Shown here piece by piece: positions 14,641-36,780 of a stretch of 64,000 bases of DNA. The notes beneath the pieces were generated by a model. It was not told the DNA's origin and did no database searches. It was given only the letters and a program-made list of their open reading frames with translations. How positions within the stretch are numbered: the stretch's first letter is position 1; each line of letters opens with the position of its first letter. A program made the position numbers and the translations under genes. This DNA is from a virus. The stretch is taken from IMG/VR virus record IMGVR_UViG_3300021403_000005. The stretch is one strand, 5' to 3'.

Positions 14641-14865
14641 CTACGGGTATAAAGCGATGTGGTAGAGATGCCCGGAACTGGTAGTGACCGTTAAAAATGC
14701 TGATGCCTCTGAGCTAGTAAACGTAATGCTCCCAACAGAGGATGGCGCCGTTGTTGAGACTCCAGTAGCCTGCGGAAACGTAACAGAAATCTGCTGCGTT
14801 AGCGTTTGAATCGCTGTCACGCCGTTTTGGAGAGCAGCGAGAATGTCTGCAAGGCTGGTAGCCAT
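14641..14865 (-). CDS. Small structural protein
   Basis: 74 aa; helical N-terminus, S/T-rich, ends with HIALYP. Confidence 0.65.
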   Translation of the reverse strand: MATSLADILAALQNGVTAIQTLTQQISVTFPQATGVSTTAPSSVGSITFTSSEASAFLTVTTSSGHLYHIALYP

Positions 14866-14874
14866 TAGGCGGCC

Positions 14875-14903
14875 TTGACTGCGTTAGGCCGCCATCGCAT
14901 ACT
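14875..14903 (+). promoter_or_regulatory. Sigma70-type promoter for the inverted HNH gene, probably giving a leaderless mRNA
   Basis: TTGACT (14875-80), 17-nt spacer, CATACT (14898-903); ATG 6 nt later at 14910 with no SD sequence. Confidence 0.6.
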
Positions 14904-14909
14904 TCTAGT

Positions 14910-15461
14910 ATGAGAGAGTCGTGGCGGCGTGTAATTCTGAATAGAGAGATTCTGCCTTATGAAGTCTCCAATCAAGGCCAAGTAAGACGGCTGCCTGGAC
15001 CAGACGGCGGCGGTCACACATGGCCACTTATGATAATGAGCCAACATACGCACCGTGCTGGGTACAAGCAGCTTGGACTGAGGTGGGTAAGTCAGCACGG
15101 TAGGAAATCCAAGGTCATCGTAGTTCACAAACTTGTCGCGTTTGCCTTTCTTGAGCCGCCTCCCGGTCAATATGGACGCGGGAAGATAGCCATTAACCAT
15201 AAAAACTCTATAAAGTCCGATAACAGAGCCGAGAATCTTGAGTGGGTTACATATCAACAGAACAGCAATCACGCTATGATTAATGGTCGAATGTCTGTTG
15301 GAGAAAGCAATCCGAATAGCCGATTTACTAATGACGATGTTCTTGAAATCAGACGTAGATTCGATGCGGGAGAAAGCATGAGGTCCCTGGCACGATCTTT
15401 TAATAGCAGCCGATGCCCTATTATGATGATTTGCAAAAGGTTGACTTGGAAACATCTTTAA
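14910..15461 (+). CDS. NUMOD4-HNH homing endonuclease with C-terminal HTH, antisense to the late operon
   Basis: YEVSNQGQVR (NUMOD4), VHKLVAFAF, INHKNSIKSDNRAENLEWVT (HNH), GESNPNSRFTNDDVLEIR. Confidence 0.9.
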   Translation: MRESWRRVILNREILPYEVSNQGQVRRLPGPDGGGHTWPLMIMSQHTHRAGYKQLGLRWVSQHGRKSKVIVVHKLVAFAFLEPPPGQYGRGKIAINHKNSIKSDNRAENLEWVTYQQNSNHAMINGRMSVGESNPNSRFTNDDVLEIRRRFDAGESMRSLARSFNSSRCPIMMICKRLTWKHL

Positions 15462-16354
15462 CCTGCGCGCACAAGCGTTATCCCGCCAACGTAGCCAGGG
15501 GGCAATACTGGGGCCGGTGTAGGAGATGAACTGCCTGCTGTGATATTAGTAACGGCAGTCCCAGTGAAGCCAGTACCGGCGCCGCCGCCAGTAGCGGCCG
15601 TATTCGGTCCTCCCTGTAAACCACTCTGATTCAAAGTGTGAGAATGCCCAGGGTCGGTAATGGGAACTGGCGGCATATTTTGGCTAGTGAGCGCAACACT
15701 CTGCGAGCCGCCCGCAGCGAATAGCGTTGTTCCATCAATACCTCCAGTCGAGGTAATACGACCTGTACCTTGACTAAGATTAAATCGAGTTCGCCCCCGT
15801 GAATCTGGGAGCGTCGTGCCAATAAGATTAGCCAGTGCTGGATAGGTAGCCGAACTAAAAGTCGTACCGTCGCAATTCAGGTAAGGGTTAATCGAGCATC
15901 CAGTTACCCAAGCCGGAACAGACGATCCGGCATATTCCCAGTACGTTCCAATCCGACCAAAATTGCGAAACTTGACGTTCGTACCATCAACAAGAATATC
16001 AAAGGGTTCATACGGGGGGCACGCTATAGTCTGTCCTACACCAGCCCCCACAGTAAGCTGAACGATAAACTGGGATGATCCAGTACAGAGATTCTGAACG
16101 GTATAAAAACCACTGACACCAACTGGAAACTCAATAATGCAACTTCCTGTTAGTGTGCTTTGAAGAGTAAGAAAGACGTTCTGAGACTGGGCGGTGCTAA
16201 GAACCGTGACGCCGTTATTAAGGGTAAGCGTGGTAAAGCCACCGAGAGCCGCATCTAGGATGCTCATATTGCCATTTACAGGCACGTCCCAAGTGCCCAC
16301 AAAGGAGCTATTCGCCGGAAGCGTCAGGGCCTTATTGGTGGTAAAGGTAACCAT
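15458..16354 (-). CDS. Tail fibre or tail-collar domain protein
   Basis: Collar motif P..YLNCDG..FS.ATYPALA.LIG..LPDSRGR, FAAGGSQSVALT..NMP, DPGHSH. Confidence 0.8.
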   Translation of the reverse strand: MVTFTTNKALTLPANSSFVGTWDVPVNGNMSILDAALGGFTTLTLNNGVTVLSTAQSQNVFLTLQSTLTGSCIIEFPVGVSGFYTVQNLCTGSSQFIVQLTVGAGVGQTIACPPYEPFDILVDGTNVKFRNFGRIGTYWEYAGSSVPAWVTGCSINPYLNCDGTTFSSATYPALANLIGTTLPDSRGRTRFNLSQGTGRITSTGGIDGTTLFAAGGSQSVALTSQNMPPVPITDPGHSHTLNQSGLQGGPNTAATGGGAGTGFTGTAVTNITAGSSSPTPAPVLPPGYVGGITLVRAG

Positions 16355-30318: not shown

Positions 30319-31233
30319 TTACTGCGTGGGGAACGTCCCATAGACCGAACGCCAGTCGTAGTAAGTGGGCACATAGCGCTGGTAGCCCTTGACCAAGAGG
30401 TTGTCCGTGGTGAACTCCACCGACATATCCATCTCGAAGGCTTTACGGTTGAAGAAGATAAGCCCATCGTGATTGGTGAGGATGAACCACGCATAGGAAG
30501 AGGTCAGGTAATCCCAGACCATAAAGCCTTCCTTGAGCGAGTCGTTCATGCCCAGAATCGCGTTGATATCGTTCTGTGCCGTGCCGGGACGAAGCTCGGA
30601 GCGGAACAGGCGTAACGCAATCGGCTCAAGATTCGGAGGCACAAGTACCTTGCGGCCACGCGCATGAATCTTCAGGCCCGCGTTGTCCTTCCAAGTGGAG
30701 CGGATGGTAATGAGAGCGTTCAGGAGTGAAGTCTCATTAAGGTCCACGTCCGGCGATGGCTGGTTGGCAATCGTCGCTTGGTCGATGGGATGAGCAGTAC
30801 TGAACAGAGAAACACCGTCGCCCTGCACCGCCGTATTGAAGGTCGTGCCCGTATTGAACACGTTCGCAGCATAGATTTCTTCGGTTTCCTTGAAGGATTC
30901 CATCAGACCATCGTTCGATGGTCCGAACTCTGCCTTGTAAAGGTTGTCGTCAATCGCCTTGCGAGTGATCGCGTAGCCAAGGCCAATCTCGAAATGCTCG
31001 GCGTTATAGACGAAGCGCTGACCCGCCGAGTTGTCGAAGGAGGTAGGCGCACCTTCCTGCTTCAACATCGCAAAGCCGAGGTAGCGAACCGCAGCACGCC
31101 GTTCGAGCGCCATGCTGGAATCGGTCTGCCGGAAAATCTTCGGCCATTGGCGTTCTATCATACTGTACTTGCCCGAGATGCCCCAAAGGCCCGGCAGCAA
31201 CAAATCGCGTATCTGACTTAACGCGACTGGCAT
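30319..31233 (-). CDS. Major capsid protein
   Basis: 304 aa; LLLPGLWGI.G.Y, KQEGAPTSFD, YAITRKAIDDNLY, SFKETEEI.AANVFN, GDGVSLFSTAHP, VPPNLE..A.RLF.SELRPGTAQNDINA; AAAGGA RBS. Confidence 0.85.
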   Translation of the reverse strand: MPVALSQIRDLLLPGLWGISGKYSMIERQWPKIFRQTDSSMALERRAAVRYLGFAMLKQEGAPTSFDNSAGQRFVYNAEHFEIGLGYAITRKAIDDNLYKAEFGPSNDGLMESFKETEEIYAANVFNTGTTFNTAVQGDGVSLFSTAHPIDQATIANQPSPDVDLNETSLLNALITIRSTWKDNAGLKIHARGRKVLVPPNLEPIALRLFRSELRPGTAQNDINAILGMNDSLKEGFMVWDYLTSSYAWFILTNHDGLIFFNRKAFEMDMSVEFTTDNLLVKGYQRYVPTYYDWRSVYGTFPTQ

Positions 31234-31271
31234 GGTAGTAATCCTTTGAAATTGCTTGTCAATTTTTCAAG

Positions 31272-31300
31272 TTGACAAGACACGTAGTTGACCATATATC
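31272..31300 (+). promoter_or_regulatory. Candidate sigma70 promoter for the inverted HNH gene
   Basis: TTGACA (31272-77), 17-nt spacer, TATATC; the -35 box is one arm of the 8-bp inverted repeat cttgtcaa/ttgacaag (31255-31279). Confidence 0.45.
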
Positions 31301-31343
31301 TTCCCATGTTTTTGGGTAGCAACCAAATCACAGGAGAGATACG

Positions 31344-32102
31344 GTGGACGAGACGACTGAAGAATGGCTTCCGATCCCCGGCTACGAAGGACAATACGAA
31401 GTATCGAATCAGTTTCGTGTAAGGCGCCTTGCGAGGATGGCGGAACACGGCATGGAGGGATTCAAGAGAGTCCTTGCTGCAAGATTGCTCTCGGTCTCGA
31501 ACAACAACGGCTACTTGGTGGTTTATCTCTGTCGGCCTGGACACCGAAAGAGAGCCAAAAAGTTCTATATTGAAGCCGCCGTTGAAAAGCTTTTTCCGGG
31601 CACCCTTCCAAAGATTCAAGATATTAGTGAGCCGGGAGAGGAATGGCGCCCTATTAGCGGATACGAGGGCCTGTACGAGGTTAGTAGTATTGGTCGAATC
31701 AAGAGCGTGGGATGGTACGTTAACAGAGGCGCCAAAAGACGCTACGCGAGGCCCCGCATCAGGATCGTTGGCATCGGGTCCAACGGCTACCCCAAAGTGG
31801 AACTTGCGATTAAGGGGAGAATCAGGACGGTTTCCATCCACCGACTTGTCGCGACAGCTTTCATTCCCAACCCCCTCAATCTTCCTATCGTCCATCACAA
31901 GGATGAAGATAGAACGAACAATCGAGTTGAGAATCTGGAGTGGGCTACGGCAGAGAAAAACATTGGCGATTGGTTTGACAGAAGGCGCGTCGTGATAACG
32001 CCCCACACCATCGAACGAATAGCCTTGGCCCACGCTTCCGGCAAAACCCCAGCCGAAATCCTGTCCTCTCTCCCGAGAAGAAGAAAGCCGCTGAAGAAAT
32101 GA
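31344..32102 (+). CDS. Tandem NUMOD4 plus HNH homing endonuclease, antisense to the late operon
   Basis: Two EEW.PI.GYEG.YEVS repeats; IHRLVATAFIPNPLNLPIVHHKDEDRTNNRVENLEW; CAGGAGA RBS with GTG start. Confidence 0.9.
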   Translation: MDETTEEWLPIPGYEGQYEVSNQFRVRRLARMAEHGMEGFKRVLAARLLSVSNNNGYLVVYLCRPGHRKRAKKFYIEAAVEKLFPGTLPKIQDISEPGEEWRPISGYEGLYEVSSIGRIKSVGWYVNRGAKRRYARPRIRIVGIGSNGYPKVELAIKGRIRTVSIHRLVATAFIPNPLNLPIVHHKDEDRTNNRVENLEWATAEKNIGDWFDRRRVVITPHTIERIALAHASGKTPAEILSSLPRRRKPLKK

Positions 32103-32132
32103 CGGAATAATAAAGAACACTTGCGATCCTTA

Positions 32133-32777
32133 CTAAGTAGAAGCCGCGTTGAGAGAGTTGCGCGCCCACAGATTGGGACGAACAACGAGAATATTCGCAC
32201 CCTCGGAACCGCTCGACGTGCCATTGACGCCCGGAGGCGCGAAGTTGGCGTAAACGTCAACGACGCGGAACGGAGAGGTGGCCGACTGAATCGTGGGCGC
32301 CACCGAAGAAGCGAGACACTGACCGGATTGGCCAGTCGTGGTGTTGCCCGCAACGGACGAGGCAATCGCGATGCCCCATCCAATATTCGATGAACCGATC
32401 AGAGTCGCGGTCGTAGTTGAGACTTGGGCGATAAAGAGTTGCTGGGGATTGTCGATGACGTAGGCATTGCATGGTGAACTGGAACCGACCGAGGCCGGGA
32501 AGTAGCTGTTCCAGACGGTGCGGCCAACCGATCCGTTGTAGTATTCGCAACCAACGAATACTCCAGCAATGACATAGCCACTCGAAGCGACTAGCGGCGA
32601 GATGGTGTTCGGGTTGGTGCCGAAGGCTTGCGCCGAACTCAGCAAAACCACGTCGCCAGTGTAGTAGGAATTGGTATCGCTCGATGCGATGAAGTAGCGG
32701 CTCATGCCCCCGGTCGGGGCAGTCCCCTCTTGCTGGCCAAAGGGCCGGAAACCGAAAGGACTGAATGTGTTAGACAA
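32133..32777 (-). CDS. Capsid-associated structural (cement/decoration) protein
   Basis: SNTFSPFGFRP, YYTGDVV, GVFVGCEYY..GRTVW..YFP, YVIDNPQQLF; AGGAGG RBS with TTG start. Confidence 0.75.
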   Translation of the reverse strand: MSNTFSPFGFRPFGQQEGTAPTGGMSRYFIASSDTNSYYTGDVVLLSSAQAFGTNPNTISPLVASSGYVIAGVFVGCEYYNGSVGRTVWNSYFPASVGSSSPCNAYVIDNPQQLFIAQVSTTTATLIGSSNIGWGIAIASSVAGNTTTGQSGQCLASSVAPTIQSATSPFRVVDVYANFAPPGVNGTSSGSEGANILVVRPNLWARNSLNAAST

Positions 32778-33261
32778 TGTTGCCTCCTGTTGCGGCGTCT
32801 CTAGCTTTCACAGCCTGACCTAAGCAGGCGAATGTCTCACGATAGATTGTTTCACCGTCCCTAAAAACTTGGACGTGAAAACTCTTGCGTTTTCGACTGA
32901 TATTTTTGATACCCAGCGTACTGTTAGACCAGCCGCCAGAGTTCACCATATTGCCGCTACGAGAAACCTCCCGTAGATTAATAAGGCGATTATCGTCTTT
33001 GTCTCGATTGATGTGATCTAGTTCGATTGGCCATTCGCCATAAACGTAAAACCACGCGAGACGATGAGCCAAGAATCGAGAACCGCAAGCGCGAATCACC
33101 CTATAACCTGTAGCCAACACAGTACCGGCCACAGACCCGATAGGACTTTGATGGAAGCTAGTAAGACGAATAAACTCGCCGGTTTCCGCATCGTAACACA
33201 AATAGGAGCGCAGAGCCTCTTGGCTCAATGCCCTCTCCTTATCTACGTTTCGATTGGCCAT
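32770..33261 (-). CDS. HNH-AP2 homing endonuclease
   Basis: LRSYLCYDAETGEF, LAHRLAWFYVYGEWP.ELDHINRDKDDNRLINLREVS..N, AP2-like C-terminus; GGAG RBS before ATG 33261. Confidence 0.9.
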   Translation of the reverse strand: MANRNVDKERALSQEALRSYLCYDAETGEFIRLTSFHQSPIGSVAGTVLATGYRVIRACGSRFLAHRLAWFYVYGEWPIELDHINRDKDDNRLINLREVSRSGNMVNSGGWSNSTLGIKNISRKRKSFHVQVFRDGETIYRETFACLGQAVKARDAATGGNIV

Positions 33262-33282
33262 GTATGGCTCCATCGACTGTTG

Positions 33283-35891: not shown

Positions 35892-36449
35892 TTAGCTCCC
35901 AGGGAGAGGCTTGCCGCCATATTTTCTTGATTTCTGTAGTCGCCCCTCGCCGCTGAAAGAGCCAGCAGACATACCGACTTTTCCACCGCGTTTATAAACC
36001 GGGCCGCCAAGCTTACGCATCGGCATACCGCCTGGAGGCGGCCCACCCATGCCCGGAGGGCCACCCATCCCAGGGGGCGGCATACCAGGAGGCGGAGCGC
36101 CCATACCGGGCGGAGGCATCGGTGGCGGTCCACCAGCACCCGGAGGTGGCATAGGCGGTCCACCAGGAGCACCACCAACCGCATGGCCACCGTGAGGTGC
36201 AACCATGATATTGATGTGCGTACCCTTTTTACCCTTAGCCGCACCCCCGCGAGCGAACTTATCCACCCTGCCTCCAGCCTTATGGCCAGGAGCTTTCATC
36301 TCATCGTGCTTCTTCAGCATCTTCTTAATCAGATGCCGATCTTCCTTTTCGTCACCATGAGCAGCGCCACCACGCTTGAAATGCTTCATCTCATGGGCGC
36401 GTTTACGCCCAGCGTGGACTTCTTTGTGGGCTTCATAGGGATGGGCCAT
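35892..36449 (-). CDS. Basic, Pro/Gly-rich internal head protein with GG motifs
   Basis: HFKRGG, GGRVDKFARGGAA, KGTHINIMV, polyproline tract, AGSFSGEGRLQK. Confidence 0.7.
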   Translation of the reverse strand: MAHPYEAHKEVHAGRKRAHEMKHFKRGGAAHGDEKEDRHLIKKMLKKHDEMKAPGHKAGGRVDKFARGGAAKGKKGTHINIMVAPHGGHAVGGAPGGPPMPPPGAGGPPPMPPPGMGAPPPGMPPPGMGGPPGMGGPPPGGMPMRKLGGPVYKRGGKVGMSAGSFSGEGRLQKSRKYGGKPLPGS

Positions 36450-36451
36450 GA

Positions 36452-36778
36452 TTATTTCTTGCCTCCGTAGCGATGGCCAGATGGCCCCGCATCAAAATGG
36501 GGATAGGGAACTCCGCCCATACCGCGAACCCAACTATTATCTGCGGCGTCATTATCGTAACCAGGGCCGTGGCGGTCGATTGGCGCCTGTGGCGCCTGCA
36601 TCTTGCGGCTCATCTCATCAATGTTCGGTGCATCAACGAGGCCACCAGCCTTGGTTCCACCACTCGATTCCTGTGGCAATCCATCCTGGCGAACCCCACC
36701 AGCTTTCTGGTCGCCACCACCATAGCGCGTCTTGGCAACGGAACGGCCCCAGTTCTCAGTCGATTTATGTTCAGCCAT
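36452..36778 (-). CDS. Small Gly-rich head-module protein
   Basis: Directly after the portal gene; RYGG and KAGG motifs. Confidence 0.6.
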   Translation of the reverse strand: MAEHKSTENWGRSVAKTRYGGGDQKAGGVRQDGLPQESSGGTKAGGLVDAPNIDEMSRKMQAPQAPIDRHGPGYDNDAADNSWVRGMGGVPYPHFDAGPSGHRYGGKK

Positions 36779-36780
36779 GA

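Follow-up and report, generated by a model that had tools for sequence, protein, structure and literature searches.

A predicted homing-endonuclease gene, lying backwards in the late operon of an uncultured phage (about 75 kb), is crossed on the operon strand by an open reading frame that begins just after the stop of one late gene and ends on the start of the next, and according to our analysis this arrangement recurs at the backward HNH genes of related phages. In this phage group the backward HNH genes are spanned by operon-strand ORFs in 8/8 cases (seven by single ORFs and one by a relay of two), the co-oriented ones in 1/22. Judging from these comparisons, we consider it most probable that selection keeps such a translatable bridge, for translational coupling and/or for avoidance of polarity. 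The initial annotation of the locus had suggested selection to preserve translational coupling; selection for an open frame fitted to its junctions is what the contrast between orientations strongly supports, and within it coupling and polarity avoidance are indistinguishable.

The collar-p74 locus

The window, by which we mean the whole analysed stretch of 64,000 nucleotides, contains a long minus-strand virion block (large terminase, portal, major head protein, tail and fibre genes), whose junctions are nearly all overlapping or at most 13 nt wide. The locus in question is composed of the following features.

14641..14865, minus strand: p74, downstream late gene of 74 aa with the N-terminus MATSLAD (ORF list; 60% identity to a 71-aa gene of the relative L001)
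14865..15455, minus strand: bridging ORF (bridge 1) of 196 codons with its ATG at 15455 (ORF list)
14868..14893, minus strand: hairpin in the operon RNA, stem 8 bp and GC-rich, GGCGGCCU/AGGCCGCC (sequence, minimum-energy fold)
14875..14903, plus strand: putative promoter facing HNH1, TTGACT, 17 nt, CATACT (consensus scan only)
14910..15461, plus strand: HNH1, backward free-standing NUMOD4/HNH_3 gene of 183 aa (Pfam, ORF list)
15458..15461, no strand: TTAA, convergent overlapping stops of the collar gene and HNH1 (sequence)
15458..16354, minus strand: collar-domain gene encoding a 298-aa tail fibre/collar-domain protein (ORF list; Pfam Collar PF07484, 1.1e-7)

The collar gene ends with GGT TAA (TAA at 15460..15458), and the ATG of bridge 1 follows 2 nt (AG) 3' of this stop, giving TAA-AG-ATG at 15460..15453. 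The bridge remains open for all of its 196 codons, and its own TAA (14867..14865) shares a single A with the ATG of p74, as TAATG at 14867..14863; all coordinates first proposed for this arrangement hold. It runs antisense to HNH1 in exact codon alignment, so that its stops correspond to the sense codons TTA, CTA and TCA of the endonuclease gene, which we call mirror stops. The convergent overlap in TTAA is likewise real, but the stops that meet there are those of HNH1 and the collar gene and not, as had been written, of two HNH genes. The same TTAA overlap is seen at G001 and L150, and G002 has an equivalent CTAA overlap.

HNH1 matches the Pfam family HNH_3 with 32.5 bits (cut-off 24.8, E 6.6e-8), the motif region INHKN...DNRAENLEW...NSNH being intact, and NUMOD4 with 22.1 bits (1.8e-4), slightly below the cut-off of 23.4; NUMOD4 (PF07463) is present in the relatives P0004 and P0007-P0017 of the same clade. 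Its closest relatives are 46-50% identical. We regard HNH1 as a predicted free-standing homing-endonuclease gene, occurring sporadically between conserved genes of otherwise collinear relatives; L001, L002 and G001-G003 are without an HNH gene at the p74 junction. The C-terminus of the clade is a conserved W(K/R)H(L/I/V) tail (alignment of P0001 and P0003-P0006), and in the window the codon of the tail His, CAT, is the antisense of the bridge 1 ATG. The idea that this terminal His is kept solely to supply the bridge with its ATG is weakened for HNH1, as the residue is conserved clade-wide.

The collar gene has homologues in L001 and L002 (49% identity); a wider search with its protein gave distant partial matches only, and the DNA of the locus had no match among 50,697 phage records. 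The start of p74 is conserved among the relatives. Where the HNH gene is absent, the order is 680-aa gene, p74, and then either the collar gene or a 1321-aa gene, and the ATG of p74 overlaps the stop of the 680-aa gene (TAATG/TGATG). It had been predicted that in relatives lacking the endonuclease the collar stop would sit directly against the p74 start; a stop does sit there, but it belongs to the 680-aa gene. The TAATG of the window would be the ancestral overlap of p74, kept as the end of the bridge, with the 680-aa gene and not the collar gene as the ancestral partner. Gene order in this region is variable: 680aa-collar-HNH-p74 in the window, collar-HNH-680aa in L154, and 680aa-p74-collar in L001, L002, G003 and L150, the collar gene of G001 being located elsewhere. 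In both the window and L154 a backward HNH gene of the same clade adjoins the collar stop, and the fibre gene and the endonuclease may move as one cassette.

The hairpin ends 1 nt 5' of UAAUG and contains the sole Shine-Dalgarno (SD)-like AAGG of p74, located 7 nt upstream of the start and within the 8-bp GC stem. The 76-nt stretch that includes this stem has a folding energy of -26.1 kcal/mol (z = -2.4), and the stem is part of the minimum-energy fold. Position of the SD inside a stem fits a p74 start which would depend on an arriving ribosome. On the other strand, the promoter-like site ends 6 nt before the ATG of HNH1, and if this promoter is real, its -10 element, ending so close to the ATG, would produce a leaderless or near-leaderless HNH1 mRNA. 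A hairpin with TTGACT or TTGACA lies between each backward HNH start of the window and the downstream late gene (14875-14910; 31255-31280).

Mirror-frame stops in backward and co-oriented genes

The second backward HNH gene of the window lies at the major capsid gene, and its surroundings include a co-oriented HNH gene of the same operon that can serve as an internal control.

30319..31233, minus strand: major head protein (capsid) gene, downstream of bridge 2 (PHROG 371; 80 relatives at 75-92% identity)
31218..32120, minus strand: bridge 2, 300 codons, GTG start (ORF list)
31344..32102, plus strand: HNH2, backward NUMOD4/HNH_3 gene of 252 aa (Pfam; zero TTA/CTA/TCA)
32133..32777, minus strand: UP, late gene upstream of bridge 2, directly adjoining the capsid gene in most relatives
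32770..33273, minus strand: co-oriented HNH_3 gene of the same operon, internal control (Pfam HNH_3, 5.2e-14)

It was confirmed that both inverted HNH genes are bridged. The GTG of bridge 2 lies 12 nt 3' of the upstream stop, behind TAAGGA, its stop lies 15 nt inside the capsid gene, and its frame is again the codon-aligned antisense frame of the endonuclease gene. HNH1 and HNH2 have merely 35% identity over 51 residues, and the two cases can therefore be taken as independent. A mirrored ORF pair at 36452..36778 (minus) and 36448..36780 (plus) was considered as a third case and rejected, since a relative encodes a homologue of the minus-strand product but none of the other.

TTA, CTA and TCA make up 2.0% of the codons in the 52 genes of the window. 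HNH1 has none of them among its 13 Leu and 16 Ser codons, with about 3.5 expected, and HNH2 has none with about 4.8 expected; the co-oriented control contains 3 in 167 codons. The chance of an open mirror frame is 0.012-0.024 for HNH1 and about 0.005 for HNH2, in two genes without close relationship, which agrees with the earlier argument that a pair of such fits is harder to ascribe to chance than one. Just one of the 52 window genes, with 108 codons, is free of mirror stops. The other four alternative frames of HNH1 and HNH2 carry 5-17 stops each, at or above about the average of window genes; because the absence of stops is specific to the mirror frame, strand composition is not its cause.

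For the comparison of orientations, the phage group was defined as the window, 20 related records and L105, and every HNH_3 gene in these records was classed by the strand of its neighbours. The eight backward genes are HNH1 and HNH2 of the window, the capsid-site genes of L064, L071, L095 and L105, and those of L140 (between homologues of the 1321-aa and 168-aa genes) and L150 (between homologues of the 680-aa gene and p74). They occupy at least four insertion sites, namely UP|capsid in five phages, collar|p74, 680aa|p74 and 1321aa|168aa. Mirror stops are absent from seven of the eight, with 3.0-7.1 expected where the expectation was computed. The eighth, in L150, has two mirror stops and is crossed by two ORFs joined as ATGCTAA: the first starts with an ATG 2 nt after the upstream stop, the second overlaps its end in a different frame and closes with a TAATG that contains the start of the p74 homologue. 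Each of the 22 co-oriented or junction HNH_3 genes contains between 0 and 14 mirror stops, zero being found in only one (7/8 vs 1/22, p = 3e-5). Counted by codons, TTA, CTA and TCA account for 2/267 Leu and Ser codons in the backward genes against 111/504 in the co-oriented ones (Fisher 3.7e-20). A tight-relay test gave the same division, being passed by all eight backward genes and by one of the 22 others. The junctions are fitted as well: stop/start overlap or spacing of a few nucleotides is found for bridge 1 and for the 7 other bridges, and there are five cases of TAATG, four of a 0-2 nt spacer and two of an SD with GTG or ATG at 12 nt.

The capsid site and other lineages

The 80 relatives found in IMG/VR by the capsid protein have genomes of about 72-77 kb, and in 72 of them UP adjoins the capsid gene without an insert. 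A backward homologue of HNH2 occupies the UP|capsid site in L064, L071, L095 and the more distant L105 (capsid 49% identical), and across each of these four genes runs one ORF of the operon strand, 274-372 codons long, which starts at the upstream stop or not more than 12 nt from it and ends 0-15 nt from the capsid start. Together with HNH2 the five capsid-site genes are 41-55% identical, and all have zero mirror stops. In four aligned genes the HNH frame has 41-50% amino-acid identity, the mirror frame 24-29%, and third positions of HNH codons agree in 35-42%; with third positions so diverged, these genes are effectively independent samples of codon choice. The comparison suggests that openness alone is preserved on the opposite strand. 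A random distribution of stops in homologous insertions had been named as the observation that would speak against selection, and the capsid-site insertions are free of stops despite this divergence.

The start of the capsid-site bridges reuses TAAGGA, which is the SD of the capsid gene in HNH-free relatives, and the capsid gene has a good SD of its own. Spacers of 11-19 or 68-92 nt occur at this site without ORF cover, and all five inserts longer than 100 nt (377-1318 nt) are fully covered by ORFs on the operon strand. Since spacers of 68-92 nt are tolerated and the capsid gene has its SD, strict coupling is not needed there; the sequence pattern at the capsid site is better explained by avoidance of long RNA stretches empty of ribosomes than by strict coupling.

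Several minor features of this junction can be mentioned here. The HNH-free UP|capsid spacers (L025-L104) form two classes, of 11-19 nt (35 distinct junctions) and of 68-92 nt (19), and the longer class, being unbridged, may hold a conserved signal. L056 (2625-2981) and L079 (2567-2989) have an extra co-oriented ORF of 118 or 140 aa which fills the UP|capsid gap, from about 2 nt past the stop to 12-20 nt before the capsid start. In L095 (3049-3051; G003, a complete relative) the capsid gene carries an in-frame TGA at codon 17 and an additional Leu codon, a short distance downstream of the backward HNH gene and with a conserved Met (MIERQ) at codon 27; the TGA could reflect an error in the assembly, alteration of the target site or use of a second start.

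The bridge is not a property of all backward HNH genes. Among those taken from other sequence collections only 2/12 have one. A metagenome scan for the HNH1 clade gave five backward genes, of which three (L179, L180, L183) are without a bridge. In L163 a single ORF of 186 codons crosses the HNH gene in a non-aligned antisense frame, with its start 2 nt after the upstream stop. L154, which has the closest homologue of HNH1 (49%), also located backwards after a collar homologue, retains five mirror stops and offers only a relay of four ORFs with TGATG and ATGA joints; that this gene has not been purged counts against the selection proposed. Its ATG overlaps a minus-strand ATG in the palindrome CCATGG (L154, 2999-3004). 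A viral scan for the HNH2 clade gave seven backward genes, 0/7 bridged, at least three of which (L294, L252, L261) are snugly embedded. In the relay test 3/58 co-oriented controls pass by chance, and 4/46 pass in the HNH2-clade viral scan, two of these being faulty ORF calls. Among cultured phages, the HNH2 matches that we sampled, in Xanthomonas FoX3 and crAss cr116_1, are both co-oriented. From these comparisons the bridge is a strong feature of the studied phage group (GC 53-57%) and not general to backward HNH genes.

Interpretation, rival explanations and known systems

We propose the following scheme for the collar-p74 locus. HNH1 would have entered a very compact late operon in backward orientation, between the collar stop and p74 and directly adjacent to both. 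Ribosomes finishing the collar gene would restart at the bridge AUG and translate a meaningless peptide of 196 residues across the antisense HNH gene; in passing they would melt the GC hairpin that holds the weak SD of p74, and then terminate at UAAUG and restart on p74. Such ribosome cover of the 0.6 kb insert may preserve the ancestral stop/start coupling of p74, and it may also prevent Rho-type polarity or mRNA decay caused by an untranslated stretch. Selection would purge TTA, CTA and TCA from the HNH gene by synonymous changes and keep the start and the stop at both junctions, the sequence of the bridge peptide itself not being selected. From sequence we infer that the bridge is translated and that the late genes are transcribed together, and the selected benefit, be it coupling, polarity avoidance or mRNA protection, is deduced in the same manner. 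The codon adaptation of the bridges is the same as in ordinary antisense frames, and the C/G ratio of bridge RNA (0.95-1.2) reveals no C-rich, rut-like signal. A search for a T7-type RNA polymerase gave no match in the relatives, as it also gave none in the control genomes. In a more general form, it is rather likely that compact late operons in some lineages force backward selfish genes into having a stop-free opposite ORF, with fitted junctions, whose sole function would be to carry ribosomes between host genes.

The observations could also be attributed to chance and codon bias, as an antisense frame in codon alignment is open more often than any other, its stops mirroring three uncommon codons. 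About 11 of roughly 230 ordinary co-oriented genes of at least 120 codons in four genomes are indeed free of mirror stops, and in ten such genes, both strands of which were compared with Pfam, no hidden backward gene was found, which fits a chance background; one co-oriented HNH gene (L149, 143 codons) belongs to the same category, and HNH1 taken by itself has P of only about 0.01-0.02. For the seven backward HNH genes with zero mirror stops, however, the joint probability is 3e-14 with the rate of genes in general and 2e-23 with that of co-oriented HNH genes. The effect moreover depends on orientation and is accompanied by the fit of spacers and junctions, which makes chance hardly credible as an explanation.

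It might be also suggested that the open frame has no present function and represents a relic or the result of an entry filter: either the endonuclease lineages once resided antisense inside coding sequences (inteins, in-frame inserts), where an open host frame is compulsory, or only those copies could establish which were open by luck. Antisense endonuclease genes inside actinophage inteins have been reported (bioRxiv 10.1101/2025.01.02.630785), as has an HNH gene located on the same strand but out of frame, across which a methylase frame stays open (PMC11855218), and conservation of the His codon supplying the bridge 1 ATG in the whole HNH1 clade (the WKH motif) would be in line with such an origin. 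Still, the diverged capsid-site genes, all of them with zero mirror stops, call for continuing selection, and a relic would not be expected to run on through non-HNH spacers of 9-37 codons to the downstream start, to fit its present neighbours at the junctions, or to use other antisense frames, as in L150 and L163; we regard this origin as unlikely. A functional protein, for instance a regulator or inhibitor of the endonuclease, encoded in a true bidirectionally overlapping gene pair, appears still less probable to us. The ORF is long, has a start codon and appears among the gene calls of four contigs in the protein collection, and antisense overlapping genes have been claimed in bacteria. But the bridge 1 peptide has no homologue among 5.8 billion proteins and belongs to no Pfam family, the mirror frame is far less conserved than the HNH frame in the capsid-site alignment, the bridges over unrelated HNH genes have only openness in common, and a bridge split between two frames (L150) or placed in a non-aligned one (L163) is difficult to reconcile with a protein product. 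Selection for a translatable bridge accommodates these points best.

In bacterial genetics, translational coupling through overlapping stop and start codons and polarity caused by untranslated insertions in operons are both well known. The bridges share with classical coupling the TAATG/ATGA-type junctions and the 0-2 nt spacers at both ends, the insert otherwise being a long untranslated stretch. Unlike classical coupling, which joins two functional genes, the link here appears to be an ORF without function of its own, the sequence of which is dictated by the gene on the opposite strand.

The seg and mob genes of T4 provide a parallel as selfish endonuclease genes placed between conserved late genes and distributed sporadically among relatives (PMC2988022). 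All T4 endonuclease genes except segD are co-oriented; segD is the one backward gene, located between genes 23 and 24 and flanked by terminators (PMC2988022). The same review states that an invading endonuclease must fit the expression programme of its host, and discusses coupling for mobE but not mirror frames (PMC2988022). HNH2 resembles segD in lying backwards beside a major capsid gene; however, segD is not bridged, and no ORF across it on the operon strand exceeds 48 codons, whereas the inserts of the phage group are spanned exactly from stop to start. ShiLan-type HNH genes in DNA methylase genes of actinophages are also similar, in that the host frame remains stop-free across the insert, but there the HNH gene is on the same strand in another frame, inside the host gene, and is translated within the host protein (PMC11855218). 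HNH1 is on the opposite strand and intergenic, and the open frame across it forms an independent ORF that has initiation and termination codons of its own; a hidden HNH of ShiLan type was rejected for this location and strand. In actinophage inteins an antisense endonuclease gene lies opposite an obligatorily open host frame, which is part of a splicing protein (bioRxiv 10.1101/2025.01.02.630785). The HNH1 locus, unlike these, has neither splicing motifs nor a host protein, and nothing but the passage of ribosomes seems to depend on its frame. An intein- or intron-borne insert was rejected too, since two distinct genes flank the insert, one with its own stop and the other with its own start, and since relatives lacking the HNH gene have p74 homologues that begin at the same Met. 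In the literature we found no publication describing an ORF that bridges an intergenic, backward endonuclease gene.

If the proposed reading is true, a host operon shapes the codon usage of a selfish gene on its opposite strand, where a single substitution synonymous for the HNH protein suffices to create a stop in the bridge. It would also define a class of ORFs selected for being translated and not for their product, and explain those "hypothetical proteins" which gene callers place antisense to endonuclease genes. For uncultured phages, such an ORF could be taken as a signature, readable from sequence alone, of obligatory ribosome coverage, whether for coupling or against polarity, and a comparison with T4 segD and the bridge-free lineages could reveal in which hosts or operon designs translation has to be continuous. 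The endonuclease load is uneven even between close relatives: G001, of 75 kb, has eight HNH_3 genes, and its close relatives G004, G006, G008 and G010 have none.
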